63,822 nt of DNA from Mustelus asterias. Its lineage: Eukaryota. Shown one piece after another: positions 29,301 to 63,822 of this stretch (the stretch's first letter is position 1; the number at the start of each line of letters is the position of its first letter). The notes beneath the pieces were generated by a model. It saw only the letters and a list, made by a program, of their open reading frames with translations. It was not told where the DNA came from and searched no databases. Location: positions 372,001 to 435,822 of the forward strand of contig NW_027590210.1 in the NCBI RefSeq assembly GCF_964213995.1, in the 5' to 3' direction. Position numbers and translations under genes: made by a program.

Positions 29301-29440
29301 AGCTCACACAGGGTGAAACTAATAGCAATTCTGCCTCACTCTGGGCCACTGGGGGAGGAGATGCCACAAATGCCCCCAAAATAAACCATTTAAAAATTAA
29401 TCTTACCGAGTGTGGGCTTCGATGCCGAGTCAAGCATTTA
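29301..29440 (-). pseudogene. Possible leader + FR1 remnant of the Gypsy-split V
   Basis: g|gtaag donor at 29406, ctcctcccccag acceptor at 29349, VAQSEAELL...; short 58-bp intron. Confidence 0.4.
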
Positions 29441-31689: not shown

Positions 31690-33250
31690 TCGCCCCCCGA
31701 TTGCCCGCCCCCCGATTGCCCCGCCCCCCGATCACTCTCTCTCAGGAACTCACCGCCATAGCCCTCTGAGCCACTCCCAATCCTTCTCAACCCGCTGCCC
31801 TCAATCTCCACTAATTCCCCTTTCCCCCACCTGATTCCCTGTCCCTCTGCCCGACCTGCTTTAATCCGACTCTGTAAGCACCCCCTCCCCCCGCTCAATC
31901 TCTCTGACACCCACTGCCAATCTGACTCTCAGCCCCCTGAATCCTCCAAGTTCCTGCCCCAAATCCTCAGCCCCCCCCCCCCAAAGGCTCCCTTTGCCCC
32001 CCCTGCCAAAATCAAGCCACCCAATCCTTCCTCAGTCCTCCCCACCCCTGAATCCCTCTGAGTCACCCCCCCGCTCCGAATCGCTCGACACCCCCCCAAT
32101 TCTAACCCTGATGCAAGGCCCCACCCTAAATCCCTCTCTGAATTTCCCCCCTCCCAAATCCCTATAAATCCACCCCGCCCTCAATCCCTTTCCCTCCACC
32201 CCGACTCGCCCCCCCGCTAACTCCCTCTGACTCCCTACCCCATCCAGACCCTCCCCAGATTCTAAGCCCCTGAGATTCCTCTGGAATCCCCCCTGAATGT
32301 CTCCCGAGATCGCACCCACCCTCGCCACATTCCTCTGCCCCCGAATCCTGCTCCCTCTCCAATCCCACCCCTTCAATCTGTCTGAGCACCAAACCATGTC
32401 TTTTAATCCCCGTAAACCCCCCAATCCCTCCTGTATCCCTCAGAACCCCAGAAATCCCCCTCTGAGCCCCCTCTTCCCAAATCCCCCTCAATTCCCCCCG
32501 ATTCCCTCCCTCTCAGCCCCGCTAAATCCCAAAGTCCCCATGAGACCCTTAAATCCCCCTGAATCCCTCTAATTCCCGACCACAATCCCTGAGTCTACCC
32601 CTACATCCCTCTCCACTCTCCCCCTTTAATCCCCCTCAATCCCCCCCCCACTCCAGCCAAATCTGTCATCCCTCCTCACAATCCCTCTAAATCTCCCGAT
32701 CCTTCCCTCTGAGCCCCGTATCCCTCTAAGTTCTCCTCTTTCCCCCCCCCCGCCCCTCTCAACCTGGCAAATTCCCACTCCCTCCCTGTGAACAGCCTCT
32801 GGACTGACAGATCCCCCCCTTTCTAATTAGTACCCCCCCCTCCGCGCGTCCATCCCCGTCCACCACCCCCCTGTAAACAGCTCCTGGTGGAGTTGGATGT
32901 GGAAACTCTGCCCATTTTAAACATTAACGTTCAAATGACTAATTCCCTTGACACTGAGCAGCCTGTGTTATAACATCCCCCACCCCCATCCTGTACAACA
33001 GACCCCCTGTCTGATTCCCCCTCCCCCCTCCTCCATTGCCCCCTTTCTCTGATAACCCCTGACTCTGGTCAGCCTGTGTTATAATATTCCCCCCTCTTGT
33101 ACAACAGCCTCCCCCACCGGCCCCTTCCCTCTCTGTCTAATAGCCCCGGCTCTGAACAAGCCCCTGTATTACACACTCCCCCCTTTCAGCAGTGCTGAAT
33201 CCCTCTGAATTGCCCCCGATTCCCTCCCTCTGCGTTCCTGGGCCCTTGCT
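31690..33250. repeat. C-rich low-complexity tract
   Basis: Degenerate (aatcccc)n and strong strand skew. Confidence 0.8.
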
Positions 33251-36200
33251 GCTTGTGAACAGCAAACCCGTGATCTGGCCCGTCCCCCACGAGAGAGCAG
33301 AGAGAGAGAGATATATAAGAAGACAGAGATAGAGAGAATGCTGCTGTAATTCAGACAGAATGATTCACAGAGAGGGGGAAGCAGAGATCAGAGAGATGGA
33401 GATGGGGAGGATGCGACTGTAATTCAGACTGATTCACAGAGAAGGAAGCAGAGATCAGAGAGAGGGGGAAGCAGATAGAGAGAGGGAAGCGATAGAGAGA
33501 GATAAGAGACAAATAAAAGCAGAGTTAAAGTTAAAATTTTATTTGTTAATCACAAGTAGGCTTACATTAACACTGCAATGAAGTTATTGTGAAAAGATAT
33601 AGAGATGGGGAGTGAGAGAGAATGCTGCTGTACTTCAGACAGAATGAGTCACAGAGAGGGAGCAGAGATAGACAGAGGGGGGAGCAGAGAGATAGAGAGA
33701 GAGACGGAGAGGAGGCTGCTGTGATTGAGATAAAATGATCCACAGAGAGAGAGATGTCCAGAGAGGCTGAGATACAAAGTGAGATGTCGAGATAAATAGA
33801 AAGTGGGGCTTTGGCAAGACAGAGTGACAAAGTTTCAGAGAGAGTGAAAGATAGAGAGAAGGAGAGAAAAAGGGAAAGATGCTGCCATTGTGAGAGGCTG
33901 AGGTATAAAGGATGGGGAGAGACCGGGATTGGAAAGATGTGGAGAAACAGTTCTGAGGATGGGGGAGTTGCACAGACAGAGCTTCAGGGAGAGGGATTGA
34001 AATCTGTGGGATTACATTGGAGCAGGGATCACTGGGAATACCCCCTCCCCCTGACACACAGACCACTAACCTTCAGTGTAAAAGCCCCACCAGTCTATCT
34101 GTGAATAAAAATGAACGACAAAGACACGGGGACTTTTATTAATATTTTTCTCTCTGGTTATAGCTCTTGTCCGAGGATTCCTCACGGCAAAACTATTCGC
34201 TCTCTGCATCGCCAAAGTTTCCAAAGGAATTCTCCTTGGAAGAGAGAAAGAGAAAATAAAGTGAAATTTGATTAAACACAAAACAAAAGCTGATTATAAA
34301 CAATAAAAGGCACAGCAAGATCCCAGGACTTGCTGAAATTCACAATCTCACTGGGGGAGGTGGGGGAAACATTCATTTTCACCTCCTCATTATTAAACCC
34401 TGACAAAATGGGAACACGTTTCAAATGCAATGAACTTCCAACTGCCTCCTGACTGTCCCGATATTGAATTTATTAAACACATCAAAGCATTCTGGGGGCT
34501 TTACTCCAGAGACAGGCCAGTGAAAAAACACAGGAGGCCCCAATGAAGTTCCCACTTCTATCAGTCACCTCTCTCCCCTCACTCTGTTTCTCCCTCTCCG
34601 TCTCTTACACACTTCCCCCCAGATCTATATCTGTCCAATACCCCGTCTCTGCTCCTGTCTCTGGATAACCTGTCCTGATCTCTGCTCTGTTTCTCTATCT
34701 CGAGGCGAATCTGGATTGAAATGCTCTCTCTAAGTTTCTGTCTGACCGTTTAAAATAAAACTCACAATCAAAAGGGAAATGAGAGGGGGGGGCGGGGGGC
34801 GGGGGGCGCGGGGGGGCAGGAAAATCCACAATCCCACCCTGAAGCGGCTGCTTCACATTTTATTGAACCATTGAATTCAGCCACTTAAACCCTGTTGGGG
34901 AATTAAGCGAATGCAAAAGTGCTGCTGAGATTTAGGCCGTGAAGTGAGGCCTAGTCACAGAGGCTGCATTATTCCTCAGGTAGAAAGAACAAACCCCCCT
35001 CTCTCCCACCCCCCAGTTAAACAGAACAATCTTCTCCATCCACACCCACAAATCCCAGCGCCCTGTCTAAAAACACAAGCAGGACTCTGGGATTGAGAAC
35101 AAGCCTTTCCCCCCAGGCTCAGGAATTTGAATTTCAGCTCCCTCTCCCTCCCGAGTGCTTCACAGTGAGAGAGAGAGAGACTGGGAATGCTGCAATCAGG
35201 ATCCCACAGGGAGTCCCACACTGCAGGAGGACACCCCCCCCCACCCCCAGAGCCTCTGTCTCTATCCCCCTACCCCCCCTCCACTGAGCCCCCCCACACT
35301 CCCCACCCATTCTCTGTTCCTCTCTCTCTACCCCACCCTCCTTCCTCTCCATCTTTTCATGTTTAAAGTGTGGGGCGCTGTCACAGTGCAGGGAATATGG
35401 GGCGGGGAGGAGGGCACAGCAAGATCCCACACACACAGTCTGAGCAGGGCCAGATAGAAAGTGATTTTTAAGTGAGGATTGGGCTAAAGTGAGTGGGCAA
35501 TGAGGGAACCACACTTCTCCCTCTCTCTCCCTTGCTCCCCCCCTCCATCTCTTCCCCCACCTTTTCATGTTTAAAGCATGGGGCTCTGTCATAGTGTGAG
35601 GAATATGGGGCAGGGGGGACAGAGCATGAGTGCACAGCAAGATCCCACACACAGCTTGAACAGGGCCAGATACAAAGTGATTTTGAAGTGAGGATTGGGG
35701 TGAAGTGAGTGGGAAATGAGGGAACGACACGTCTCCCTCTCTCTCCCCTCCATCTCTCCCCCACCCCAAATGAAAATAATAAGTCACTCCAGCATTGGTG
35801 CTGTTAGTACATTCGATCTGAACTGGGAACCTTCCACTTCGAGCAGAGTCCCACCTCTCTCTGATTCCCTCTTTCTCTCGCTGTTTCTCTCTCCCTCTAT
35901 CTCTGAACCTGTCCAGCCCCCTCTGTGTCTCTTTTGCTTTCCCCCCAGATCTATATATATCCAAACCCCATCTCTGCCCCGGTCTCTCCTACTCTGGATA
36001 ATCTGTCCTGATCTCTGCTCTGTTTCTCCGTCTGGGGATGAATGGGGATTAAAATGCTCTCTCTGATAAGTTTCTGTCTGACCGTTTCAAATAATGACGT
36101 GTTGTGGGCCACGTTTGCTATTTCTCAGTGATTTCCATGGGGAAATGGGGAGGGAAGCTCCTCCTGCAAAGCCAGATCTCTCTCTCACTGCAATGTGGCA

Positions 36201-36744
36201 GCAGCCAGATTCCAATATCTTTACAACACATCAAATATGAGGAAAATATATTTTCAAACACAACAGCACAGATTCAGCCTCAGTTACACAGTCGCTGTTT
36301 CTAAATCCCACCTTCTGGGAGGCTGTGAGTGAGGGTCTTTATCTCAGAGTAAAGTATAAAGTAAAGTTTATTTCTTAGTCACAAGTAAGGCTTACATTAA
36401 CACTGCAATGAAGTTACTGTGAAATTCTCCTAGTCGCCACACTCTGGTGCCTGTTAATGCACCAGAGTGGGTTAATGCACCGAACCAGAGACTGGGGAGC
36501 TGGCTGGGCTGTGAGTGCACAGCGGAGGCCCCCCCCCCCCCCCCTACCCCTCTAACCCACTCCCCTCCAATCTCTCTTCTCTCCCTGCCCCTCTGCCTTT
36601 GCCCTCTCTCTCTCTCTCTCTGTTACCATCCCTTTCTCTCTCTCTCTCTCTCTCCCTCCCTGATAACTCACAATCACGGGAGAAAGATTGAAGAGAAAGA
36701 GATATAGCAGGAAAACCCACAATCACATCCCAAATCCAATGAAA

Positions 36745-37200
36745 GGGTTGACCAGGATGTTGCCTGGTATGGAGGGTATTGGCTGTGAGGATTGATTGAA
36801 TAAACTGGGATTGTTCTCCCTGGAAAGACGGAGGCTGAGGGACGACCAGCGGGAAGTTTATAAAATTATGAGGGGTGTGGCGAGGATGAACAGTTGGGAG
36901 CTTTTTGCCAGGACAGAAATGATAATTACAAGGGGGAACAAGTTCAAGATAAGGGGGGAAAGGTTGAGTGGAGATGTGCGGGGAAGGTTTTTACACAGAG
37001 GGTGGTGGGGGCCTGGAATGCGCTGCCAAGTGAGGTGGTTGGGGCAGATACATTAGTGACATTTAAGACTTATCTGGATAGACACATGAACAAACGGGGT
37101 AGAGAGGGATACAGGCCATTGGTCTCGATAGGTAAACATGATCGGCGCAGGCTTGGAGGGCCAAAGGACCTGTTCCTGTGCTGTGCTGTTCTTTGTATTA
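36745..37200 (+). mobile_element. CR1 LINE 3' fragment
   Basis: LGLFSLERRRLR..FTQRVVGAWNALP. Confidence 0.9.
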
Positions 37201-38458
37201 AAGTGTCTGCTGCAGGTTTTATTCGACCGTCGAGTCCCATCGATTTAAACACAGGCACTGTTTGGAAAAGGAGCAAAATGCAAAAGCCTTCCTGAGGTTA
37301 GGCCTGGGATTGAGGCCTGGTCACAGAGGCTGCATTATACATCCTGGACAAAGAACAGGTTCCCCAGGCCCCGGCCAGTTCACCAGAACAATCCCCTCCA
37401 GCCCCGAAACCTCCCGGACAGGGCCTGGGAGGAGGGAGGGGGGAAAAGGGAACCTGTGCTTCCCCCACCCCCTGTCCCCTTCCACCCTCCCCTCACACCG
37501 CACGCAGCCCCCATTACAGAATCATAGAATCCTACAGTACAGAAGGAGGCCATTCGGCCCATCAGGTCTACACCAACCACATTCCCATCCAGGCCCCATC
37601 CTCATTACTCCATGTGACTCTCTCTCTCTCTCTGTCTCCCTGTCTCTCTCTCTCTTTGTGTGACTTTCTCTCTGTCTCTCCCGATCTCTCTCTCCCTGTC
37701 TAATATTGTTATGAAGTTGCGTATATCAGGTTAAAAATGTGGTGTTTGACAAATGTAAATATTGAATAGAAATGCTGAGAAAACCAAAACGAACCATCCA
37801 GCGTTGTGTCTTTAGAAAGCCTGTGTCTCTGTGCTGGGGATTTTAAACTGCAGAAAGCAGGCTACAGAAGACAACTTTACAACATTTGTGTCCAAAGCAG
37901 CAGCCAGAGTCCCAGCAGAGCAAAACAGGCTTTGAACTGGACCAATGATTTTAAAACAAGCTCCCAAACACACACAACCAATTGCATTCAAATTGGGGCG
38001 TTGGTGACAGCCTCAAGCCACTCAAATTGCAGGAATACTGTGAGGAAATTCTGGGTATTTAAACCCGGGACAGGGGGAAATAACGGGGAGGGAGCGACCT
38101 TGCTGCCTCTTTAGATTGAAGGGGGGAGAGTCTGATACTGAATCCTGCAGTAATATATACAGCTTCATCACATCACCATCTAAATAGAAGCAGAAACCAA
38201 CTCAGAAAGTATTCCAGACCCAAGCAGCAGAAGGAAGTTCACACTTCCAACAGACGCCTGGTTATTCGAGGGTGACTCTATTCTGTAATGATTTATTTCA
38301 TTATTCCTGAGTGAGTCTTGTCCTTGGAACAGCATTCTACTGGGGAGTTTATTCAGTTTGTTCATTGTTTTAATAAGGTTGTCACCCAGTCTAAATTAAA
38401 GACCTGTTTGGTTGTTCCTGATGGAGAGAGTGTCAGATCTTGCTTTAATTTACCAATT

Positions 38459-38632
38459 TCTCCCACAGTCCAAAGCTGTGCGGGTTGGGTGGATTGGCCG
38501 TGTTAAATTGACCCCAGTGTCAGGGGGATTAGCAGGTTAAAAGTGTGGGGTGACGGGAATAGGGCCTGGGTGGGATTGTGGTCGGTACAGACTAGATGGG
38601 CCGAATGACCTCCTTCTGCACTGTAGGGATTG
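38459..38632 (+). mobile_element. HE1 SINE 3' half
   Basis: SINE homology. Confidence 0.85.
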
Positions 38633-41600
38633 AATGTCTAAAACCAGTCGCTTCCTCCTGTCTCTCACACACTTATTTAAGATTACGAGGCGAGGTGTAT
38701 CCCTTTAGGGGGTTACAAAATAGCGCAGAGGGAAACATCACCTCAGAGTGGTAACAATATTTATAATCCCACAATCACACACCCACCCTCCCTTAGTCAA
38801 TGAATGAATGATTCAAATGACAATGAAGGTAATTCTGCACAGCAAGATCCCACTGCCAGTCCCACAGTGGAGGAGGACACCCCCAGACTCTGTGTCTCTT
38901 TCCCCCTGCCCCTCCTGAGACCCTCTCACACCTCCCCCACCCCCTCTCTGTTTAGCTCTCCCTCCATTTCTCTATCTCTCTCTCTGCCTCCTCCGCCTCC
39001 CCAACCCTTCTCCTTCCCCTCAATCTTTCCTGTTTAAAGTTCTGCTCACGGTCACAGTGCGAGGAATAGGGAGCCAGACCCACCTGTGTGCACAGCAAGA
39101 TCCCACACACACAACCTGGTGAGGGCCAGATTAAATAAATGTTGTGGGTGAGGACTGCAGGAGAGTGTGTGGGAAATGGGATCCACTCCTCTCTCTCTCT
39201 CTCTCTCTTCCCAAATTAAATTGACAACAATTCACATTGGTGTTTTCTTAAACATTTTATTGAAAGATGAAATATAGACAGGAATGTCTGGGGAGAGAGA
39301 GAGGGGAGGGGAGGGGTGCTGGGATTGGTAAGAACACTGGAGAGACAGAGAAATTCTATACCCCCCCCCCCATCCAAATAGAAATTCCTGGGAAAAGAGA
39401 GAGAGAAAAGAATCTGGAGTCACACAGCACAGAAACAGGCCCTTCGGCCCACCAGCTCCATGCTGGCCATCAAATCCCAATCTATCCTCCTCCCATTCCC
39501 CAGCACTTGCTCAAGAGCCTACGATGCCTCGGTGATTAAAGTGCTTGAATTGACCCGACCCCTTTTCAAGCTTTTTCCTTGAACCCACTTTGCGGTCCCT
39601 GAGCCAGATTTTGTTTGAAAATAAAAAGTGTGGGCGCTGTTGCTGTGCAGGCAAAGGCCACAGGCCCAGTGTGTGCACAGCAAGATCCCACAGTAGCAGC
39701 AGCAATGTGAACCTGAATCAGATGGGACACAGTCCTCCCCCCACCCCTCCCCCACTCTCTTGCCTGCTGTGAGCCCCCTTCCCCACTCACTACCCTGTGT
39801 GTGTCTGTGTGTGTGTCTGCATCATCCCAAATCTCCAGAAAGGCCGGAACTCCCTCTTAAAAGTAACCCTTTTTAAAACTAAAATCCCTGTGGTGCACAG
39901 CAAGATCCCACAAAGTGCAGTCAGCTGTGTTGAGCGTTTTTTAAATTTGGGAATTGTTTATACAGAGTGAGGGAGCCAGAGAGGGGCTGAGAGAGTGAAA
40001 TCCCTCTCTCAGGACCCTCAGAATTAAACTGGAGACCCTGTCCCTCACTGAAACCCCCCCTCCCTCTAACAGCCTGTGTCTCTCCCCCTGCATCTAACCC
40101 ACAACTCCAGCTGTTTCCATCCCTCCCTCTTCCTCTCTCTCCCTGCCTCTCTGTCTCCATCTGTTTCTGCTCGAGAAGAGACAGGGAGAGAGAGGACAGG
40201 GAGAGAGAGAGACGGGGAGAGACAGAGATAAAGCGAGAGAGACAGATATTTGATAATTAATTGTGTATGGTCGCATGATTGAGTGTGGTTTAATTTGGTG
40301 ATTTTTTTTATACAGAGAGGCAGAGAGAGAGGTGAAGACAGTGACATTCTCCCCCTGGCACCCTCGCAAGTTCAAAGACACAAAAGCTGCAGACACTCAC
40401 ACACACAAACTGGGTTTGGTAAGTTTCCCAATCTCTGCAGCTTCCCATGTGGCCCAGGGTTTGAATTGAAATTTAAAAGCAGCTTGGAGAGACTGCAGGA
40501 TTTTTGAGTTGAGTTTCTCCCCCCCCCCTCACCCTGTAAATATAAAATAGAAATTCCTGGATTAAAATATTCCCTTGGACAGAGCAGAGGGAATGTGTGA
40601 GTGGTGTGTGTGTGTGTCTGAGACCTAGGCTGGATTTGGGAATATCTGCCTGCTGAAGAGGGTCAGTGAAACCATCCTGGCTGAATATCTCATCGCTAAA
40701 GAGTCACAGAGAGAGATATCTGATCAATAAATGTGTTACTGAACCCACTCTGGATGCTCCCTCTATCTCTGTCTTTCTCACTAACTTCATTGCAGTGTTA
40801 ATGTAAGCCTTGTGACACTAAGAAATAAACTTTAAATCTTTCAACTTTAAAAACTCTCTCTTTCTGTCTCTCAGTAACTGCAGCGTTAATGTAAGCCTTA
40901 CTTGTGACACGAATAAACAAACTTTAAAACTTTAAATATCCTCTCTCTTTCTGTCTCTTTATCTATGTCTCTGTCTCTGTGTGTCTCTGTCTCTCTCAGT
41001 AACTTCATTGCAGTGTTAATGTAAGCCTTACTTGTGACACTAATAATCAAACTTTAAAACTTTCAACTTTAAAACCTCTGTCTGTGTGTCTCTGTCTCAA
41101 TTCAGACACTAGTTCAGTGCCAGGTTGAGAGGGGGTCAGTATTGAGCAGAGTGGGGGGCAGTTTGATACAAAGTTTGCAGAAACTGCAGCGAGTGTTTGT
41201 AAACATGTTGGGGTTGTGGAAAGGTCAGTGTGTAACAAGCTGAGGGAAGGTGTTTCCACTTCACATGTGGCTACTTTTTGACAGAGTTACCTTTGCATCT
41301 ACAGGGAGCTCTGAAGCCTCATGGCTTTCTGCCTGCCTCTGTTTGAACAGTTTAATATGTTTCAGCACTGAGACCTCTGGCCCTTGTTGGGAATATCAGT
41401 CTCCCAGAATACCAGTATACCTGACTGCCCACCTCCCCGCCCGCCAACCCCAGCCCCCAACCCTGTGTGTGTGTTGTCCCAAGTCTGGAGACTTCCCCGC
41501 AGTCCCCTGAAAGGTTTAAACTGCCTCTGAGAAAACACCCCTTTTTAAAACAAAATCCCCAGCAAGATCCCACAAGGTGCAGTCAGCTGTGTTGAGTGTT

Positions 41601-41699
41601 TTGTAATTTGGGAAAAGTTTATACAGAGAGAGAGAGAGAGTGAGGCAGAGAGGGGCTGAGACAGTGAAATCAAACCCCCCGGGACACCCAGAATGAAAA

Positions 41700-44600
41700 T
41701 TACACAGCACAAAATCCCAGGATTGCCCCTTTCCAGGTTTTACTGAGAGGTTGTCCAACTAAATATTAATTCCTGGGAAAAAGAGGGAGTGAGAGAGAAT
41801 AAAGAGAGGCAGAGAGAGGAAGGAAATGGAGAGAAAAGCAGAGAGAAATAGACAGAATGGGGGAAAAGCTGTGGAGAGGATGAAATGAAAATCTGAACAT
41901 CTGTAAACTGAATTGTAAAGGCCTCTGTGAATTTTATTCAACAATTAGGTTCATTGCTCTGTCTCCGACCCCTGTTATTTTAGATTTAAAGCAAACTTAT
42001 AGACAGTTTCATACATAATTTAGTCTTTGCCACCCACCAAAGGGTTAACGTGTTCGTGACTAATTACAAAGCCGGGATATTTTAACCCCAGGGTTTCAAA
42101 CTCCAGCCCCCCCTCCCCACAATCGAATCCGAGGAAGCAAGATTAAAATTAAACCTGGATCAGGATAATAAAGAGACAACAACTCACATGCGGCCTATAG
42201 AACAGGCTTCAGTCCATCCATCCTCCTCTGGAGAAAAGCCCCTTGTCCAAGTATTCCGAGTCCCGTTGCAGTCTTCAAAATTCAAATTCCTGGGGAGAAG
42301 AGAGAAAATAGTTAATTAAAATACAAGAAAATATTTAAATTAAATAGCACTAGAGCCCAGGATTCCCCTTCTCAGATTTTACTGAGAGATTGTCTAACTA
42401 GATATGAATTCTTGGGGAAAAGAGAGAGAAAATTAATTAAATACAAGAAACCATTGAAATTAAATCTCACCAAAACGCAGGATTCCCCCTTCTCAGTTAC
42501 ACAATCTCTCAGAAACATCAGAATGGCATGAACAGAGAGAGAGAAGTCTACAAACAGAATCTCCTAAAACTGAATTCAAATATCCACAACCCCCCAGTCC
42601 ATCCCTGTCTCCCTCTCAGACTCCAGGAGCTGCTCATCTCCCTCTTTCAGTTTGGGAAGGGGCTGCTGATTCCTTCGGGACACTTTTTAAAATCGCCCTC
42701 CCGGGATTGGTTTCTACAACTCCCGGCATCTCCCTTTCACTATCTCCCTCTCTTTTCTCCCTCTGCTCCTGTCTCTCTCACTCAGTGTAAAGATGGATGT
42801 TCCTGTCTAGATCCTTGTCCCTGTCCCCTCTCTTTCTCACTCGTTGTCTCTGTCCATAGCTGTTTCTTTCCCTCTCTCTCATGTACTCTGCATTGAAATG
42901 AGCGATGCCATATTCCTGTCTCCCTGTTTACAATAACACAGTTTTTGTTGATTAAAGGTTTAAAGAGACACAAAGGAAGATGGAGCCAGAGAGAGAGAGA
43001 GACATTCTGGAGAGTGATAGACAGATATGGAAGAATGCTCGAGAGGGAGAGAGAGACATTCCGGTGAGTGATGGACAGATATGGAAGAATGCTCGAGAGG
43101 GAGAGATGAATGGAAAGAAACAGGAAGGGAGAGAAAGCTGAAGATAGGGGAAAAATACTGGAGAGAGAGACAGAGAGAAAAGCAGAGCGAAATAGAATGG
43201 GGAAGAAAGCTGCAGAGGGGAAGATAAATGTAAAGGCTGAACTTCAGAAAATTGAATTGTAATGTCCTCTGTGAATCTTATTTAACATTCGGGTAAATCA
43301 CTCTCTCCCACCCCTGTTATTTTGGATTTGCATCAAACTTTTAGACAGTTTCATATTACAGATATTTAATTTACTCTTTGCCACCCAGCAAAGGGTTAAC
43401 CTGTTTGTGACTAATTGCAAAGCCGGGATATTTTAACCCCAGGGTTTTAAACTCCACCCCACCCCACAATCGAACCAGAACTGGTTCATCCAAGAAAGCG
43501 AGATTAAAATTAAACCTGGATCAGGATAATAAAGAGACAACAACTCACTTGAAGCCTATAGAACAGGCCTCAGTCCATCCATCCTCCTCTGGAGAAAAGC
43601 CCCTTGTCCAAGGATTCTGAGTCATGTTGCAGTCTTCAAAATTCAAATTCCTGGGGAGAAGAGAAAATAATTAATTAAAGTACAAGAAAATGTTTAGCAC
43701 AAGAGCTAAGATTTCACTGAGAGATTGTCCAACTAAATATTAATTCCTTGGGAAGAGATCGAATATAATTAATTTAAATGCAAGAAAATGTTTAAATTTA
43801 ATACACAAGAGCCCAGGATTCCCCTTTCTCAGTTACACAATCTCTCAGTAAAATCTAAATATTAATTCTTGGGTAAAAGAGAGAGAAATATATTAAAATA
43901 CCAGAAAATGTTTAAATTAAATAGCACAAGAGCCCAAGATTCCCCCTTCTCAGATTTTACTGACAGATTGTCCAACAAAATATTATTTCCTGGGAAAAAG
44001 AGGGAGAGAGAGAGGGAATAAAAAAGAGAGACAGATAGAGGAAGGAAAGGGATGGAGAGAGAGAAAGCAGAGAGGAAATAGACAGAATGGGGGAAAAGCT
44101 GCAGAGAGGATGAAATGAAATTTTGAACTTCTGAAAACTGAATTGTAAAGGCCTCTGTGAATTTTATTCAACAATTAGGAACAGCGGTCTGTCTCCCATC
44201 CCTGTAATAAAGAGACGACGACTCACATGCGGCCTATAGAACAGGCCTCAGTCCATCCATCCTCCTCTGGAGAAAAAGCCCCTTGTCCAAGGATTCCGAG
44301 TCATGTTGCAGTCTTCAAAATTCAAATTCCTGGGGAGAAGAGAAAATAATTAATTAAAGTACAAGAAAATGTTTAAATTAAATAGCACAAGAGCCCAGGA
44401 TTCCCCCCTCTAAGATTTCACTGAGAGATTGTTTAACTAAATATGAATTCCTTGGGAAGAGATAGAATATAATTAATTTAAATACAAGAAAATGTTGAAA
44501 TTAAATAGCACAAGAGACCAGGATTCCCCTTTCTCAGTTACACAATCTCTCAGTAAAATCTAAATATTAATTCTTGGGTAAAAGAGAGAAATATATTAAA

Positions 44601-46740
44601 ATACCAGAAAATGTTTAAATTAAATAGCACGGTAGCACAGTGGTTAGCACTGCTGCTTCACAGCTCCAGGGACCTGGGTTCGATTCCCGGCTTGGGTCAC
44701 TGTCTGTGTGGAGTTTGCACATTCTCCTCGTGCTTGCGTGGGTTTCCTCCGGGTGCTCCGGTTTCCTCCCACAGTCCAAAGATGTGCGGGTTAGGTTGAT
44801 TGGCCATGCTAAAACTGCCCCTTAGTGTCCTGGGATGCGTAGATTAGAGGGATTAGCGGGTACAATATGTAGGGATATGGGGGTAGGGCCTGGGTGGGAT
44901 TGTGGTCGGTGCAGACTCGACGGGCCGAATGGCCTCTTTCTGTACTGTAGGGTTTCTATGATTTCTATGAAGAGCCCAGGATTCCCCGTTCTCAGATTTT
45001 ACTGAGAGATTGTCCAACAAAATATGACTTCCTGGGAAAAAGAGGGAGAGAGAGGGAATAAAAAAGGGAGACAGATAGAGGAAGGAAAGGGAGAGAAAGA
45101 GAGAGAGAAAGCAGAGAGAAATAGACAGAATGGGGGAAAAGCTGCAGAGAGGACACAATGAAAGTCTGAACATCTGAAAAATGAATTATAAAGGCCTCTA
45201 TGAATTTTATTCAACAATTAGGAACAGCGGTCTGTCTCCCATCCCTGTTATCTTGGATTTAAAACAAATTGAGACAGTTTCATATTACAGACATTTAATT
45301 TACTCTTTGCCACCCACCTAAGGGTTAATGTGTTTGTAACGAATTGCAAAGCCGGGATATTTTAACCCCAGGGTTTCAAACTCCAGCCCCCCCATCCCAC
45401 AATCGAACCAGAACTGGTTCATCCGAGGAAGCGAGATTAAAATTAAACCTGGATCAGGGTAATAAAGAGACGACAACTCACATGCGGCCTATAGAACAGG
45501 CCTTAGTCCATCCATCCTCCTCTGGAGAAAAGCCCCTTGTCCAAGGATTCCGAGTCATGTTGCAGTCTTCAAAATTCAAATCCCTGGGGAACAGAGAAAA
45601 TAATTAATTAAAGTACAAGAAAATGTTTAAATTAAATAGCACAAGAACCCAGGATTCCCCCTTCTAAGATTTCACTGACAGATTGTTTAACTAAATATGA
45701 ATTCCTTGGGAAGAGATCGAATATAATTAATTTAAATACAAGAAAATGTTGAAATTAAATAGCACAAGAGACCAGGATTCCCCTTTCTCAGTTACACAAT
45801 CTCTCAGTAAAATCTAAATATTAATTCTTGGGTAAAAGAGAGAGAAATATATTAAAATACCAGAAAATGTTTAAATTAAATAGCACAAGAGCCCAAGATT
45901 CCCCCTTCTCAGATTTTACTGAGAGATTGTCCAACAAAATATGACTTCCTGGGAAAAAGAGGGAGAGAGAGGGAATAAAAAAGAGAGACAGATAGAGGAA
46001 GGAAAGGGAGAGAAAGAGAGAGAGAAAGCAGAGAGAAATAGACAGAATGGGGGAAAAGCTGCAGAGAGGACACAATGAAAGTCTGAACATCTGAAAACTG
46101 AATTATAAAGGCCTCTATGAATTTTATTCAACAATTAGGAACAGCGCTCTGTCTCCCATCCCTGTTATCTTGGATTTAAAACTAACTTTGAGACAGCTTC
46201 ATATTACAGACATTTAATTTACTCTCTGCCACCCAGCAAAGGGTTAACCTGTTTCTGACTAACTGCAAAGCCGGGATATTTTAACCCCAGGGTTTCAAAC
46301 TCCAGCTGCCCCCCCACACCCCACAATCGAACCAGAACTGATTCATCCGAGGAAGCGAGATTAAAATTAAACCTGGATCAGGGTAATAAAGAGACGACAA
46401 CTCACATGCGGCCTATAGAACAGGCTTCAGTCCATCCATCCTCCTCTGGAGAAAAGCCCCTTGTCCAAGGATTCCGAGTCACATTGCAGTCTTCAAAATT
46501 CAAATTCCTGGGGAGAAGAGAAAATAATAAATTAAAATACAAGAATTCTTTAAATTAAATAGCACAAGAGGCCAGGATTCCCCCTTCCCAGTTACACAAT
46601 CTCTCAGTAAAATCTAAATATTAATTCTTGGGGAAAGAGAGAGAAAATAATTAAAATACAAGAAAATATTTAAATTACATAGCACAGCAAAATACCCAGG
46701 ATCTCCCCTCAGTTACACAATCTCTCAGTAACACCCAAAC
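41700..46740. repeat. Tandem duplication, ~920-bp unit (5 copies) with ~122-bp subunits
   Basis: Exon spacing 924; 1255 (includes a SINE); 678 (deletion); 1361. Confidence 0.92.
44627..44969 (+). mobile_element. HE1 SINE inserted in one tandem unit
   Basis: Splits tagcac|aagagccc, which is intact in the sister units. Confidence 0.93.
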
Positions 46741-48044
46741 ACAACAAGTCAGTTGTAAAGCAGAGACTAAAGAGATTGAGACAGTTCCCTCCCTGTGTGT
46801 TTCTCTCTCTCTCTCTCTATTCCACTCTCATTCAGATCTCGCTCCCTCCGATATGAAACATTAAATCTGGATCAGGTTAATAAATAGACACAACTCACTC
46901 GGGATGAAGCCTGAGCAACAGGCCTCAGTCAGCCCTCCCTCTGGAAGAAGCTCCTCTCCCTCATCCTGGTCACAATCATTCCCGTCCTTTGGATCCTCGA
47001 CACATCCCCAGTTTTCAAAATTCCTCAGGAGAAAAAGAGATAAAAATTGGTTAAAAAGAGAGAGAAAAAGAGACAAGGCCATTTTAACAATAAGACACAC
47101 AACATATCACAGCGAGGAGTCCAGCATTTCCATTCAAGTCCATTCAGCATCATGTCAACACAAGCAAAGCACAGGTAAAAACGCAGATTGAGACACACAC
47201 ACACACACTGAATCAGAGTGGGAATGTTTTCAGTGCAGGGGGATTATTGGTGTGGAGACTGAAGGCTCTCAGATTCACATTTATCCTGAGTGTGCTGGAT
47301 GCAAACCCCACCCTGAGTCTCTGACATGTCTGCAATGTCTGTCTCTCTATTGAGATGCTAATTCACCCCCCCTCCCCCTCTCACCCTCTCACCCCAGAGG
47401 AGTTTGTGGCAATGTCAGACTGACTATTGATATGTTAATGCAGGGAGGCAATGGATTCTGCAATCTCCTGCCTTTAGTTTCTTTAGTTTAGTTTCAAACT
47501 TTATTTCTTTTCCCCCGTAGGTCGTGTTCGTCCATTTCAAAAGCCCCCTGACCCCCGCACAGCAGCCCCAAAAATCCTTGCAGCCACTCCCCACAACCCA
47601 GCGAGTGGAGGGGGAATGGGGATGTGTGAGTGAGTGGATTGGGGGGATTGTGTCAGTGTGTGTCTGTCTATCCCCCCCTCTCTGCTCACACTTCCTGCCC
47701 AGCCTGCTGAAGACAGGGAAAGAATGGGAGTTGAACAAAGCCTCCTCTCTGCCTCCATTTTCAAAGGATTTGCCCCTTTCTCACACCAGTTTTGTCCATT
47801 GAGCTGTCCCTGTCAATTGGAAAAAAGTTTTATTTATCTCGCTGTGAGATATGAAGTCACTAATTACTAAATACAGGCAAAAACATCCCATTATGAGACA
47901 CGGAGGTTCAATGGGATTTTAAACTGAAATCCTCGGATGTCAATTCCTTAGGTTAAAAGTTTCTAATTCATTAATTTGGATTAAATTAAAACCGGCCAGT
48001 ATATTCTCACCAGCTGCTTTCTGTTAACTCTCCCCCTGATCACC

Positions 48045-48340
48045 GGTGGTTAGCACTGCTGCCTCACAGCGCCAGGGACCCGGGTTTGATTCCCGGCTTG
48101 GGTCACTGTCTGTGCGGAGTCTGCACGTTCTCCCCATGTCTGCGTGGGTTTCCTCTGGGTGCTCCGGTTTCCTCCCACAGTCTGAAAGACGTGCTGGTTA
48201 GGGTGCATTGGCCGTGCTAAATTCTCCCTCAGTGTAACCCGAACAGGTGCCAGAGTGTGGGCGACTCGGGGATTCTCACAGTAACTTCATTGCAGTGTTA
48301 ATGTAAACCTACTTGTCACACTCGTAAATAAACTGAAACT
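48045..48340 (+). mobile_element. SINE
   Basis: tRNA-like head and variant tail. Confidence 0.88.
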
Positions 48341-48379
48341 TAACACTCCTGCACTCTCCCGCCAGCACTCACTCACTGT

Positions 48380-51297
48380 TGTACACTTACTCAGTCTCAC
48401 ACACATTACACACATACTCACTTTTACACACTCCCTCTTGCACACTTGCTCACACACACACTCACTCTCATAAACACTCACTTTAACACACTCACATCAA
48501 CACACACATGAATACTCCCTCACACACTCTCACACACACATTCACTCACTCGCACGCACTCNNNNNNNNNNNNNNNNNNNNNNNNNNNNNNNNNNNNNNN
48601 NNNNNNNNNNNNNNNNNNNNNNNNNNNNNNNNNNNNNNNNNNNNNNNNNNNNNNNNNNNNNNNNNNNNNNNNNNNNNNNNNNNNNNNNNNNNNNNNNACA
48701 CTCTGTCTCGCTCACACACACTCTCTGTCTCGCTCGCTCACACTCTCTGTCCCGCTCACACACACTCTCTGTCTCTCACACACACTCTCTGTCTCTCACA
48801 CACACTCTCTGTCTCTCACACACACTCTCTGTCTCTCACACACACTCTCTGTCTCTCACACACACTCTCTGTCTCGCTCACACACACTCTCTGTCTCTCA
48901 CACACACTCTCTGTCCCTCTCACACACACTCTCTGTCTCTCACACACACTCTCTGTCTCTCACACACACACTCTCTGTCTCGCTCACACACACTCTGTCT
49001 CGCTCACACACACTCTCTGTCTCGCTCACACACACTCTCTGTCTCGCTCACACACACTCACTGTCTCGCTCACACACACTCACTGTCTCGCTCACACACA
49101 CTCTCTGTCTCACACACACTCTCTGTCTCTCACACACACACTCTCTGTCTCGCTCACACACTCTCTGTCTCGCTCACACACACTCTCTGTCTCGCTCACA
49201 CACACTCTCTGTCTCGCTCACACACACTCTCTGTCTCGCTCACACACACTCTCTGTCTCGCTCACACACACTCTCTGTCTCGCTCACACACACTCTCTGT
49301 CTCTCACACACACTCTCTGTCTCTCACACACACTCTCTGTCTCTCACACACACTCTCTGTCTCTCACACACACTCTCTGTCTCTCACACACACTCTCTGT
49401 CTCTCACACACACTCTCTGTCTCTCACACACACTCTCTGTCTCTCACACACACTCTCTGTCTCTCTCACACACACTCTCTGTCTCTCTCACACACACTCT
49501 CTGTCTCTCACACACACTCTCTGTCTCTCACACACACTCTCTGTCTCTCACACACACTCTCTGTCTCTCACACACACTCTCTGTCTCTCACACACACTCT
49601 CTGTCTCGCTCACACACACTCTCTGTCCCTCTCACACACACTCTCTGTCCCTCTCACACACACTCTCTGTCTCTCACACACACTCTCTGTCTCTCACACA
49701 CACACTCTCTGTCTCTCACACACACACTCTCTGTCTCTCACACACACACTCTCTGTCTCTCACACACACTCTCTGTCTCTCACACACACACTCTCTGTCT
49801 CTCACACACACACTCTCTGTCTCTCACACACACACTCTCTGTCTCGCTCACACACACTCACTGTCTCGCTCACACACACTCACTGTCTCGCTCACACACA
49901 CTCTCTGTCTCACACACACTCTCTGTCTCTCACACACACACTCTCTGTCTCACACACACTCTCTGTCTCTCACACACACACTCTCTGTCTCGCTCACACA
50001 CACTCTCTGTCTCGCTCACACACACTCTCTGTCTCGCTCACACACACTCTCTGTCTCGCTCACACACACTCTCTGTCTCGCTCACACACACTCTCTGTCT
50101 CTCACACACACTCTCTGTCTCTCACACACACTCTCTGTCTCTCACACACACTCTCTGTCTCTCACACACACTCTCTGTCTCTCACACACACTCTCTGTCT
50201 CTCACACACACTCTCTGTCTCTCACACACACTCTCTGTCTCTCACACACACTCTCTGTCTCTCTCACACACACTCTCTGTCTCTCTCACACACACTCTCT
50301 GTCTCTCACACACACTCTCTGTCTCTCACACACACTCTCTGTCTCTCACACACACTCTCTGTCTCTCACACACACTCTCTGTCTCTCACACACACTCTCT
50401 GTCTCGCTCACACACACTCTCTGTCCCTCTCACACACACTCTCTGTCCCTCTCACACACACTCTCTGTCTCTCACACACACTCTCTGTCTCTCACACACA
50501 CACTCTCTGTCTCTCACACACACACTCTCTGTCTCTCACACACACACTCTCTGTCTCTCTCACACACACTCTCTGTCTCACACACACACTCTCTGTCTCG
50601 CTCACACACACTCTCTGTCTCTCACACACACTCTCTGTCTCTCACACACACTCTCTGTCTCTCACACACACTCTCTGTCTCTCACACACACTCTCTGTCT
50701 CTCACACACACTCTCTGTCTCTCACACACACTCTCTGTCTCTCTCACACACTCTCTGTCTCGCTCACACACACTCTCTGTCTCGCTCACACACACTCTCT
50801 GTCTCGCTCACACACACACTCTGTCTCGCTCACACACACTCTCTGTCTCGCTCACACACACTCTCTGTCTCGCTCACACACACTCTCTGTCTCGCTCACA
50901 CACACTCTCTGTCTCTCTCACACACACTCTCTGTCTCGCTCACACACACTCTCTGTCTCGCTCACACACACTCACTGTCTCGCTCACACACACTCTCTGT
51001 CTCGCTCACACACACACTCTCTGTCTCGCTCACACACTCTCTGTCTCTCTCACACACTCTCTGTCTCTCTCACACACTCTCTGTCTCTCACACACACTCT
51101 CTGTCTCTCACACACACTCTCTGTCTCTCTCACACACTCTCTGTCTCGCTCACACACACTCTCTGTCTCGCTCACACACACACTCTGTCTCGCTCACACA
51201 CACTCTCTGTCTCGCTCACACACACTCTCTGTCTCGCTCACACACACTCTCTGTCTCGCTCACACACACTCTCTGTCTCGCTCACACACACTCTGTC
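48380..51297. repeat. ~18-20-bp CA/CT minisatellite
   Basis: (cacacacactctctgtctcg/ct)n. Confidence 0.95.
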
Positions 51298-56984: not shown

Positions 56985-58655
56985 TACAAATGGGCCCTTT
57001 GGCCCAACTTTTCCCTGCCACCCAGTTTTTACCATTAAGCTCGTATCAAATGCCTTGCGTTTGGCCCAAATCCCTCCATACCAATCTTACCAGAATAACT
57101 GTCTAAATGCTTTTTAAAATATAAAATTGTGTCCGCTTCTACTCCGACCTCTGGCAGCTTGTTCCAATCCCTCACCACCCTATGTGTGAAAAGAATTGCC
57201 CTCTGGACCCTCTCCCCTCTCACCTTAAACCTATGTCTTCTAGTTTTAGACTCCCCTCCCTTTTGGAAAAGATGTTGACGAGCTTATCAAAGAACAAAGA
57301 GAATTACAGCACAGGAACAGGCCCTTCGGCCCTCCAAGCCTGCACCAACCATGCTGCCCGACTGAACTAAAACCCCCTACCCTTCCGGGGACCATATCCC
57401 TCTATTCCCATCCTATTCATGTATTTGTCCAGACGTTCCGTAAAACTCACTATCGTATCTGTTTCCACTACCTCCCCCGGCAGCGAGTTCCAGGCACCCA
57501 CCACCCTCTGTGTAAAAAAACTTGCCTTGTACATCTCCTTTAAACCTTGCCCCTCACACCTTAAACCTATGCCCCCTAGATTTTGAATCTTCCACCCTGG
57601 TAAAAAGCTTCTGACTATCCACTCTGTCCATGCCCCTCATAATCTTGTAGAATTCTATCAGGTCGCCCCCTCAACCTCCGTCGTTCCAGTGAGAACAAAC
57701 CAAGTTTCTCCAATCTCTCCTCAGAGCTAATGCCCTCCATCCTAGGAAACATCCTGGTAAATCTTTTCTGAACCCTCTCCAAAGCCTCCACATCTTTCTG
57801 GTAGTGTGTCGATCAGAATTGAACACTATATTCCAAGTGCGGCCTAACTAAGGTTCGATAAAGCTGCTGTATCCATGCCCTCATTATTTTAGAGACCTCT
57901 ATAAGAACACCACTAAGCCAACTCAAGGGAAAAAAGTCCCAGAGTATCCAGCCTCTCATTATAACTCAAACCATCAGGACCCCATAGCATCCCAGTAATT
58001 CTTTTCTGCACACTTTCTAGCTTAATAATCTCCTTTCTATAAGGGTGACCAGAACAATACACAGCATTCCAAGTGTGGTCTTACCAATGTCTTGTACAAC
58101 TCCAACAAGACGTCCCAACTCCTGTGTTCAATGTTTTGACCAATGAAACCAAGCATGTGGAATGCCTTCTTCACCACTCTATCCACCTGTGACTCCACTT
58201 TCAAGGAGCTATCAATCTGTACCCCGAGATCCCTTTGTTCTGTAACTCTCACCAACACCCTACCATTAACTGAGTAAGTCCTGTGTTTGTTCAATCTACC
58301 AAAATGTATCACCTTGCATTTATCTAAATTAAACTCCATCTGCCATTCAACAGCCCACTGGCCCAATTGATCAAGATCCCATTGCAACCCTAGATAACCT
58401 TCTTCACTGTCCACTATGCCACAAATCTTGGTGTCAACTGCAAACTTACAAACCATGCCTCCTAAATTCTCATCCAAATCATTAATGTAAATGACAAATA
58501 ACAGTGGACCCAGCACCGATCCCTGAGGCACCCCGTTGGTCACAGGCCTCCAGTTTGACAAAAAAACAACCCTCTCCAACCACCCTCTGTCTTCTGTCAT
58601 CAAGCCTATTTTATATCCATTTGGCTACCTCACCCTGGATCCCGTGAGATTTAAC
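56985..58655 (-). mobile_element. CR1 LINE RT with nested second CR1 (57289-57865)
   Basis: GVPQGSVLGPLLFVIYINDL..KFAVDTK..LVRPHLEC. Confidence 0.92.
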
Positions 58656-58709
58656 CAAATCCTGTCTGCTTTTGTTTTTAAATTTGTACATTTTTAAACA
58701 CAGAAACAG

Positions 58710-61700
58710 TTCTGTATCGAACTCTGTGCTGTACCTGTAACTTTCCTGGGAGTGTTTGATGGGAACAGTGTCGAGGGAGCTTTACTTTGCATCTAATCCC
58801 GTGTTTCAGTCACTGATAGACTGTAGAGGAAGATCAGGTCACACACACGCTCTCCTTACACACTCTCAGACACACACACACACACACACATACACACACA
58901 TGCTCTCTCTGTCTCTCACACACACATACACTATCTCTTACGCACTCTCTCACTCACACACATGCTCTTCCTCTCTGTCACACACACATTCTCTCTGTCA
59001 CACACATTCTCTCACACACACTTTCACGCTCACACACTCTCACCGATGCATTCTCTCACTGACACACTCTCACACACATGCACTCAGTCTCGCACACACA
59101 TTCACTCAATCTCTCACTCACATACACTCTCTCTCTCACACNNNNNNNNNNNNNNNNNNNNNNNNNNNNNNNNNNNNNNNNNNNNNNNNNNNNNNNNNNN
59201 NNNNNNNNNNNNNNNNNNNNNNNNNNNNNNNNNNNNNNNNNNNNNNNNNNNNNNNNNNNNNNNNNNNNNNNNNNNNNNNNNNNNNNNNNNNTAGAGGAAG
59301 ATTTGAGCTGTATCTAACCCCGTGCTGTACCTGTCCTGGGGCTGTTTGATGTGCACAATGTGGAGGCAGCTTTTCCTTTAATCTCGCACCATGCTGTATC
59401 TGTCTTTGGATTATTTGATGGGGACAGTGTATAGGGAGCTTCACTCTGTATCTCACCCCATGCTGTACCTGTCCTGGGAGTGTTTGATGGGGACAGTGTA
59501 TAGGGAGCTTCACTCTGTACCTAAACCCGTGCTGTTCATGTCCTGGGAGTGTTTGATGGGGATAGTGTAGAGGGAGCTTTATCTGTATCTAACCCTGTGC
59601 TGTATATGTCCTGGGAGTGTTTGATGAGGACAGCGAAGTGGGAGCTTTACTCTATATCTAACCACTTGCTGTATCTGTCGTGGGTGTGTTTGATGGGGAC
59701 AATGTGGGGGGAGCTTTACTCTATCTAATCCCGTGCTGTACCTGTCCTGGGAGTGTTTGATGGGGGACAGTGTAGAGGGAGATTTACTCTGTATCTCACC
59801 CCGTGCTGTATCTGTTCCGGGAGTGTTTGATGGGGACAGCGTGGAGGGAGATTTACCCTGTATTTAACCCCATGTTGTACCTGTCCTGGGACTGTTTGAT
59901 GGGGACAGTGTCGAGGGAGCTTTACTCTATATCTAACCCCGTGCTGTACCTGTCCTGGGAGTGTTTGATGGGGACAGTGTCGAGGGAGCTTTACTCTAAA
60001 TCTAACCACTTGCTGTATCTGTCCTGGGAGTGTTTGATGGGGATAGTGCAGAAGGAGCTTTACTTTGTATCGAACCCATGCTGTGAATGTCCTGGGAGTG
60101 TTTGATGTGGACATTATCGAGGGAGCTTTACTCTTTATCTAAACCCGTGCTGTACCTGTCCTGGGCGGGTTTGTTGGGGACAGTGTAGAGGGAGCTTTAC
60201 TCTGTATCTAATCCCGTGCTGTATCTGTCCTTGGTTTGTTTGATGGGGACAGTGTAGAGGGAGCTTTACTCTCCATCTAACCCCGTGCTGTACCTGTCCT
60301 GGGACTGTTTGATGGGAACAGTGCAGAGGATGCTTTACTCTGTATCTAACCCCGTGCTGTACCTGTCCTGGGAGTGTTTGATGGGAACAGTGTAGAGAGA
60401 GCTTTACTCTGTATCGAACTCTGTGCTGTACCTGTACCTTTCCTGGGAGTGTTGGATGGGAACAGTGTCGAGGGAGCTTTACTTTGCATCTAATCCCGTG
60501 ATTCAGTTACTGATAGACTGCCGAGGAAGATCAGGTCACACACATGCTCTCCTGACACACTCTCAGACACACACACACACACACACACACATGCTCTCTC
60601 TGTCTCTCACACACACATGCACTATCTCTGACGCACTCTCTCACTCACACACATGCTCTTTCTCTCTCTCACACACACTTTCTCTCTCTCTCACACATTC
60701 TCTCTCACACACATTCTCTCACACACACTTTCACGCTCACACACTCTCACGCATGCATTCTCTCTCATTGTCACACTCTCACACACATGCACTCAGTCTC
60801 TCACACACACATACACTCACTCTCTCACACACATACACTCTCTCTCTCACACATAGACTCTCTCTCAAGGATATACTCTCTCCCACACACANNNNNNNNN
60901 NNNNNNNNNNNNNNNNNNNNNNNNNNNNNNNNNNNNNNNNNNNNNNNNNNNNNNNNNNNNNNNNNNNNNNNNNNNNNNNNNNNNNNNNNNNNNNNNNNNN
61001 NNNNNNNNNNNNNNNNNNNNNNNNNNNNNNNNNNNNNNANNNNNNNNNNNNNNNNNNNNNNNNNNNNNNNNNNNNNNNNNNNNNNNNNNNNNNNNNNNNN
61101 NNNNNNNNNNNNNNNNNNNNNNNNNNNNNNNNNNNNNNNNNNNNNNNNNNNNNNNNNNNNNNNNNNNNNNNNNNNNNNNNNNNNNNNNNNNNNNNNNNNN
61201 NNNNNNNNNNNNNNNNNNNNNNNNNNNNNNNNNNNNNNNNNNNNNNNNNNNNNNNNNNNNNNNNNNNNNNNNNNNNNNNNNNNNNNNNNNNNNNNNNNNN
61301 NNNNNNNNNNNNNNNNNNNNNNNNNNNNNNNNTCTCACGCCCACGCTCTCTCTCTCGCACACACTATCTCCCTCACACACTCTCTCTCTCTAACACACAC
61401 ACACTCTCTCTCACGCACATGCTCTCTCTCACGCACACGCTCTCTCTCACGCACATGCTCTCTCTCACGCACATGCTCTCTCTCACGCACACGCTCTCTC
61501 TCTCGCACACACTCTCTCTCTCGCACACACTCTCTCTCTCGCACACACTCTCTCTCTCGCACACACTCTCTCTCTCGCACACACTCTCTCTCTCACACAC
61601 ACTCTCTCTCTCGCACACACTCTCTCTCGCACACACTATCTCTCTCACACACTNNNNNNNNNNNNNNNNNNNNNNNNNNNNNNNNNNNNNNNNNNNNNNN

Positions 61701-63150: not shown

Positions 63151-63822
63151 TTGCTCCCTCTCCCTATCTCTCTGTTACTCTCCATCGCTCCATCTCTCTC
63201 TCTCTCTCCCTCTCCCTCTCTATCCCTCTCATCCACCATGTTGTTTATCGTTAAGGGGTCTAATCACGGAGAATTCAAACACTCTTTCTGTTTCTGTCTT
63301 GGCAGAATTAGCAACATTAGTGGATATTTCAAGACTGGATTCACACAATACAGACAGAACGCTGGTGAGCTCAGTACACGTGGTACCTGAATGTTACAAT
63401 AAGATAGAATCTGTATTCAGACAACTGTCACCCCACAGGGTCCAAACTTCACCGTGTTAATTTGATTTGATTTGATTGATTTGTATTGGGATGCAGTGAG
63501 AAGTATTGTTTCTTGTGCGCTATCCAGACAAAACATTCCGTACATAGAGTGCACAGGGGAGAAGGAGAGGAAAGGGTGCAGAATATAGTGTTGCAGTTAC
63601 CGATAGGGTGTAGAAAAAGATCAGCTCACACACACTCTCTCTTACACACTCTTAGACACACACATAATCTCACGCGCACACACGCTCTCTCTCTCTCACA
63701 CACACACACTCTCTCACACTCTCAGACACACACATACTATCTCACACACACACACACACACACACTCTCACACACACACGCTCTCTCTCTCTCGCACACA
63801 CACTCTCTCACACTCTCAGACA

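Follow-up and report, generated by a model that had tools for sequence, protein, structure and literature searches.

The window analyzed here, a stretch of 63,822 nucleotides from Mustelus asterias, contains a tandem array of near-identical exon-like segments whose introns carry a 26-bp element in one orientation (A) or the other (B). The question raised by this locus is whether the alternating elements pair in RNA and control splicing, as a first-pass annotation had claimed, or are a trace of how the array was made. The latter is probably the case: the B-A-B pattern is best read as the fossil of one 22–26 bp micro-inversion whose copies were multiplied by duplication, both tandem and segmental; pairing is then a likely by-product. 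The annotation itself had offered one micro-inversion followed by duplication as its null explanation, and this fits best, given one orientation change on the tree of copies, equal rates of change in elements and surroundings, and no compensation.

Elements and their arrangement

All 14 elements (8 B and 6 A) were found at exactly the starts reported earlier. The two types had been described as reverse complements within near-identical flanks. The flanks are homologous and the 14 elements differ from A or its reverse complement at 0–4 positions, but no B matches the reverse complement of A exactly. The B consensus had 11 matches at ≤3 mismatches, compared with 0.00 expected (100 shuffles). The reported distance of about 122 bp between copies applies to neighbouring elements (121–123 bp) but not to the pair 44536–44994, which is separated by a SINE-like insert.

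On the plus strand, the order is B41735, E5, B42374, A′42495, E4, B43709, A43831, B43952, E3, B44413, A44536, the SINE-like insert, B44994, E2, B45667, A45790, B45911, E1, A46590, A46711, and E0, where E denotes exon-like segments (Table 1). The B-A-B arrangement had been stated for every intron, which is too broad: it is present in three of the five relevant introns of the window, and the other two are B-A′ and A-A. The elements at 42495 and 46711 have only about 18–21 of 26 nt in common with A, and their right flanks are unique. Every full subunit has an acceptor-like site 11–12 nt before the element (minus strand), in agreement with the earlier observation of a decoy acceptor copy per subunit; in the triplet B1-A-B3 (45667..45936), the acceptor-like AGs end at 45704, 45827, and 45949 (minus strand).

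Table 1. Features of the array and of its host repeat (positions within the window)
Feature	Position	Strand	Description
Host repeat unit	31691..48560	none	C-rich minisatellite at left end, satellite arrays at right
T	34135..34400	-	downstream exon-like paralogue with poly(A)-signal-like hexamer
B element	41735..41760	none	terminal type
E5	42188..42289	-	exon-like, 102 nt, AG/GT ends
B element	42374..42399	none	type B0, one mismatch from reverse complement of A
A′ element	42495..42520	none	end type, partial, unique right flank
E4	43549..43650	-	exon-like
B-A-B triplet	43709..43977	none	elements at 43709, 43831, 43952
E3	44227..44329	-	exon-like, 103 nt, frame shifted by 1-nt insertion
B-A-B triplet	44413..45019	none	elements at 44413, 44536, 44994; SINE-like insert inside
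E2	45482..45583	-	exon-like
B-A-B triplet	45667..45936	none	B1 45667, A 45790, B3 45911
E1	46406..46507	-	exon-like; predicted loop-out upon A46590-B45911 pairing
A-A pair	46590..46736	none	A1 46590, full length; A0 46711, unique flank, putative ancestral copy
E0	46899..47023	-	exon-like, older paralogue of E; copy-number marker
U	47690..47809	-	upstream exon-like segment, AG/GT ends, donor uncertain by 2 nt

Exon-like segments and RNA data

The segments E1–E5 are near-identical, 102–103 nt long, and bounded by AG/GT ends on the minus strand. Across the genome copies, the splice ends were AG in 244/245 and GT in 240/245 of the parsed exons; 34/279 exons were left unparsed, and the acceptor was missing in 13 of these 34. 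Variable sites in the E exons (21/102) were as frequent as in the intron spacers. Of the changes possible in the open frame, 12 of 63 silent ones and 34 of 222 replacement ones were seen (ratio 0.8, p 0.56), and none of the 12 possible point stops occurred in frame 1. The E exons are thus without sign of coding constraint. Since they are also near-identical, choice among them would diversify a product little.

No stop-free join into the E frame was found from U or from E0, and joins from E to E keep the frame and would give rise to an ATG (frames read by eye). A short repeat peptide may therefore be encoded by in-frame E-to-E joins. The E peptide had no match in Pfam or in the Atlas, and the E0 peptide had none among longer proteins. 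The sole match in 1.84 billion representatives, P0001 (22 bits, 35%), was summed over 17 near-identical repeats and was rejected. In Rfam, 46 matches were obtained, none of them at the gathering score.

Sequencing runs (three putative RNA and one putative DNA) were aligned to 33500–44620, with E0, E1, E2, and the upstream introns lying outside this range. None of the 15 joints listed (of 76) was exon-to-exon, and dispersed repeats dominated. Parts of T and E are covered by contigs from the putative RNA runs; depth cannot be ranked from contigs, and some of them may be DNA.

Predicted RNA pairing

The claim that each A could pair with either flanking B in a duplex of 20 bp or more was borne out in prediction: duplexes of about 20–25 bp were obtained in two competing registers, with energies of −23 to −42 kcal/mol over all 48 A-B combinations. 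When the E1-E2 intron was folded alone, B3 paired with A (20.7 bp) and A hardly paired with B1 (2.7 bp), and a 1421-nt fold agreed. With other fold boundaries, A46590 was predicted to pair with B45911 across E1 (22.9 bp) and A with B1 (22.5 bp). This exon-looping register, A1-B3, won in 10/11 copies folded; two further stretches gave within-intron pairs only. A competing geometry of this kind, seen here in prediction, agrees with the expectation from the duplication model in PMC6071210.

The proposed masking of decoy acceptors by the duplex did not hold up in the local register. The predicted unpaired fractions of the three decoys were 0.54, 0.63, and 0.45 in the local register and 0.29, 0.74, and 0.29 with both B elements flipped back in silico, so that two of the three were more open in the local register than in the flipped-back control. 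A/B pairing, predicted to form if the unit is transcribed, is likely a by-product.

Two functional readings can be set out. In the first, the array would be a docking/selector-like splicing switch at its birth: the micro-inversion and duplication would have made competing stems that alter exon skipping in a family of shark transcripts with about 450 copies. This has a low probability. If it is true, the natural B-A-B, B-B, A-A, and empty variants would be an allelic series for how such control arises. An effect on RNA would also supply the origin of the first stem, whose existence is taken for granted in the duplication model of mutually exclusive splicing, and would come with hundreds of natural variants for comparison.

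The second reading, a young working splicing cassette in which the first array exon would be skipped upon A1-B3 pairing and included in the local B3-A register, as in docking/selector control, likewise has a low probability. It draws on the two registers being nearly tied in prediction (19–21 bp for B3-A, compared with 23 bp for A1-B3 plus 22.5 bp for A-B1) and on the recurrence of A1-B3 in all but one of the copies folded. A minus-strand transcript would also make A1 and B3 before the middle A, which could let the looping pair arise first. In the available part of PMC6071210, such control is proposed to originate from duplicated stem arms. Against the cassette stand the near-identical, unconstrained exons described above, the absence of a single docking site, and the results on rates, compensation, and pair loss given below.

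Rates of change and compensation

For the comparison of rates, 102 of 120 B-A-B introns were kept, and 18 failed the spacing filter. Variable sites made up 14/78 of the elements and 61/303 of the spacers overall (odds ratio 0.87, 95% interval 0.42–1.70); in the 60 introns from loci picked by E0, the counts were 8/78 and 28/305 (1.13, 0.43–2.69). Strong conservation of the elements is ruled out; these 78 sites, from copies that are not independent, would be compatible with mild or moderate constraint. Likewise, A and re-oriented B differed at 21/208 element sites and 42/474 flank sites (pairs not independent). Divergence of the 26-mers as fast as their flanks was the annotation's own test of the splicing role, and the role fails it. 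As the mutation rate of A and B is that of the surrounding DNA, they are probably not a splicing switch.

Compensatory base changes are the field's criterion for docking/selector pairing. They had been called for as a check in other sharks, and none were found among the paralogous copies of this genome. In 338 neighbouring pairs, none of 12 derived A alleles and none of 16 B alleles were matched by the partner (with a shifted B haplotype and positions 1–8 of end-type A excluded), and none of the 40 pairs predicted by RNAalifold from 30 B3-A segments was compensated. None of the 338 pairs was perfectly complementary. A G-U pair was kept by 10/37 alleles, compared with 6.6–12.9 expected without selection, and pair-breaking alleles were common, one A allele being present in 34/371 A elements.

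Intron composition across copies

The parsed set consisted of 86 stretches, the window plus 85 of 140 loci; two held no element. Among 201 E-to-E introns, the types were BAB (120), BA (37), empty (12), BB (10), ABA (9), BABAB (4), BAAB (3), AB (2), and B (2), and two were longer. Neither orientation is confined to one place: both recur in most introns, and no docking site, whether single or one per side, is shared by all selectors. As many as 24/201 introns lack any A/B pair. The first intron, between E and E0, was AA in 59/60 cases. The number of E exons ranged from 0 to 6 in the stretches holding E0, some of which are cut by the stretch end, and five copies were without any B element or any E exon.

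This variety has the look of turnover by unequal crossing-over. BAB nevertheless remains the commonest type, and the first intron is nearly uniform. Both facts weigh against a neutral reading, and young shared ancestry or selection could explain them. The frequency of the exon-looping register, the mostly intact splice ends, and the lack of point stops in frame 1 point in the same direction.

The ten intron make-ups besides B-A-B, together with the whole-array deletion in five copies, could also suggest a role at the level of DNA. In this case, hairpins between A and B elements at a distance of 121 bp would favour the deletions and duplications by which the array is rearranged, with no role in RNA. 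The plus strand does fold A with B (22 bp, RNA energies). Direct repeats are enough for unequal crossing-over, and those present here, of 122 bp and 0.9 kb, suffice. The hairpin explanation is quite improbable.

Probable origin by inversion

The two orientations are told apart by position 21, which was G in 371/371 A elements and C or T in 417/421 B elements. In a tree built from 31 subunit haplotypes, with the top 4 of each class taken and end-type A left out, one orientation change is enough; the change has 81% of bootstraps, and its branch is not starred. B0 differs from reversed A at 1 of 26 positions, and the flanks are 5% apart.

The A orientation is found in both end copies with unique flanks and in a diverged element of the intron upstream of T, which serves as an outgroup. 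Alignment scores to this outgroup element were 80.5 for A0, 70 for A1, and 71.5 and 65.5 for B units. These copies lend modest support to A as the ancestral orientation. In the tree drawn with midpoint rooting, diversity is greater among B units than among full-length A units, so the polarity rests on the outgroup copies. B also holds the last bases of full-length A, which are missing in A0, and the inversion therefore likely followed the 122-bp duplication.

The following course of events would account for the array. An intron would have carried the element in the A orientation about 100 nt before its acceptor, and a 122-bp piece spanning the acceptor would have been duplicated, giving the decoy acceptor and full-length A. 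One copy would then have been flipped where it lay, between AG/CT ends of 2 bp, through either a template switch or microhomology repair. The 122-bp subunits and 0.9-kb exon cassettes would subsequently have been shuffled by unequal crossing-over, and the whole unit would have spread through the genome.

The micro-inversions between human and chimpanzee described in the available part of PMC8755829 are 17–33 nt long with flanking inverted repeats of 3–75 nt, and the present element, 22–26 bp reversed in place within collinear flanks, resembles them in size, in its untouched flanks, and in having an inverted repeat at its edges. The exact repeat is shorter here (2 bp, AG/CT), and an imperfect 7–9 bp pair lies 10–12 nt further out; these lengths are read from present sequence, and the flanks have diverged since the inversion. 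The shortness of the inner repeat, below that 3–75 nt range, is an observation against a micro-inversion. In the same source, short flanking repeats are argued to suit break repair better than template switching; here, either mechanism may have acted. A further difference is that one subunit of a tandem array was hit, both orientations coexist, and they were amplified hundreds of times. Short template-switch events (PMC5453318) are a related known system.

Recurrent flipping or A/B conversion, as in an invertible switch, is highly improbable. It would find some footing in the 4/421 B elements with the A-type base at position 21 and the 2/371 A elements with the B-type base at position 22. One change nevertheless suffices on the tree, position 21 splits the orientations almost completely, and a loop of 22–26 bp would be too short for recombinase pairing, by an argument in the available part of PMC8755829.

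Comparison with docking/selector exons

The array resembles the docking/selector clusters of Dscam exon 6, 14-3-3zeta, Mhc, and MRP1 (PMC6071210, available part) in its tandem exons and duplicated intronic arms, and in predicted competing duplexes, one of which loops out an exon. Tandem similar exons with intact splice sites are present (exon use is putative), and competing intronic elements that could loop out an exon are seen in prediction. In contrast to those clusters, the exons are near-identical, and the array has no single docking site, no conservation above the flanking intron (a comparison of paralogous copies with limited power), and no compensatory changes in the neighbouring or predicted pairs. 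Because these last three features were each tested and found lacking, the array is not classed as a docking/selector cluster. It is placed among micro-inversions amplified by duplication, with a possible competing-stem arrangement if it is transcribed.

The duplication model in PMC6071210 presupposes a stem-loop, and the word 'inversion' is absent from the part of that source available; here, the likely origin of the stem is visible. As a neutral fossil, the array would be a worked example of strong, competing, exon-looping RNA complementarity from one micro-inversion and duplication. Since such complementarity can arise in this way, alternating inverted motifs alone are no proof of splicing control.

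Host repeat and its genomic surroundings

The annotation had described a cassette next to a TCR locus. The adjoining V-set segments are real: at 7.8–31.7 kb, 8/8 segments tested matched Pfam V-set, the nearest of them matched antibody and TCR alpha/delta chains, and 3 of the 8 had a recombination-signal-like motif by a strict pattern. The array itself, on the other hand, belongs to a genome-wide repeat at least 17 kb long, for which the assembly has about 450 candidate loci, in both orientations and on many contigs. Among 140 fetched loci, V-like DNA was found only in the window and in one stretch of its own contig. With candidate loci on so many contigs, the array is not confined to the TCR locus, and the link looks incidental.

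A 411-bp probe gave 1721 candidates in the genome, and the 40 that were scored were all ≥97% identical. Exact A was counted 858 times and one B variant 610 times. E0 occurs once per repeat unit in the copies seen and gave 457 loci, a candidate count that may include uncollapsed haplotypes. The left boundary of the unit near 31.7 kb recurs in 4 other copies, each time next to other flanking DNA on the left. To the right of the array, a coding gene was looked for in about 11 of 20 stretches, which contained nothing but satellites and frames resembling LINE reverse transcriptase (identified by eye). No description of the host repeat was found in the literature searched, including the available part of PMC11406177 (weak evidence), and the repeat may be undescribed.

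The unit is like D4Z4, LCR16a/NPIP, and other macrosatellites and core duplicons (PMC5687341 and PMC7419210) in being a multi-kb unit with exon-like pieces, in its many near-identical interspersed copies with internal copy-number variation, and in a shared end set against different flanks. It differs from them in that its candidate copies number about 450, occur in both orientations, and are spread over many contigs, and in that no protein family was found.

Copy number could shift with a phased assembly. An assembly artefact, or a copy number inflated by uncollapsed haplotypes, would be suggested by the location of most copies on small contigs and by the complete identity of some over the searched stretch, and is scarcely credible as an explanation given hundreds of copies with distinct shared haplotypes and given the putative DNA runs of other organisms, which contain as much as 0.30 of the words sampled and, in one such run, have depth in 30/30 bins.

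The host repeat and its borders with V segments

The repeat unit that carries the exon-like array spans 17 kb or more and runs on into satellites beyond the interval listed in the table. About 450 candidate copies were located on many contigs, and their common left end lies at a C-rich minisatellite. The unit may behave as a core duplicon or macrosatellite. It contains several exon-like segments, for which no protein family was found. Two further exon-like segments with AG/GT ends were picked out by eye on the plus strand, and antisense transcription across the unit is possible.

To the left of the array lie eight V-set segments (five on the plus and three on the minus strand), three of which match a strict pattern for a recombination-signal-like motif. 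An LTR-retroelement-like open frame is located amid them. Part of this V block (window 5.6-11.3 kb) was found duplicated and inverted at locus L116 of the same assembly (G000:C178:247700-257699), at 84-97% identity. The inverted duplicate adjoins another copy of the left end of the host repeat, so that contig C178 has two places where the repeat meets rearranged V blocks. The same contig holds locus L124 (about 278-284 kb), which matches the right end of the window (57843-63822) at 100% identity across several kb; this is either a very recent duplication or assembly redundancy.

Features located in the window
Feature	Position	Strand	Remarks
V-set segments (n = 8)	7809-31652	+/-	
LTR-retroelement-like open frame	27540-29303		Reverse transcriptase, RNase H, integrase
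Host repeat	31691-48560		
SINE-like sequence	44630-44970		Inside the array
Acceptor-like site	45949	-	Precedes B3 (B element at 45911)
Exon-like segment	47521-47625	+	AG/GT ends
Exon-like segment	about 63305-63365	+	AG/GT ends

Sequences within and derived from the array

The acceptor-like site preceding B3 consists of an all-pyrimidine tract followed by CAG/G. On inspection, it was judged equal in quality to the acceptor of the exon-like array copies, and it is the first of its kind downstream of the donor. This may be the site that splicing really uses.

Other copies, among them L028, L030, L032, L040 and L053, carry a SINE-like sequence immediately past A0 (the A element at 46711) rather than within the array. 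It is 89-96% identical to the one in the window's array, and the two insertion sites in the host-repeat unit are separated by about 2 kb.

A 236-bp array piece with a single A-B pair was observed at locus L041 (G000:C6, about 64,957,230-64,957,520), isolated on a 148-Mb contig. It is 95% identical to the array copies and is bounded by a 41-bp inverted pair that derives from a dispersed repeat and by a 13-bp direct repeat. The arrangement is reminiscent of Penelope-type capture, in which sequence is taken up between inverted terminal repeats (PMC3846280); Penelope is a putative family name here. If the capture passed via RNA, the array intron carrying the A-B pair would have been transcribed in the germ line.
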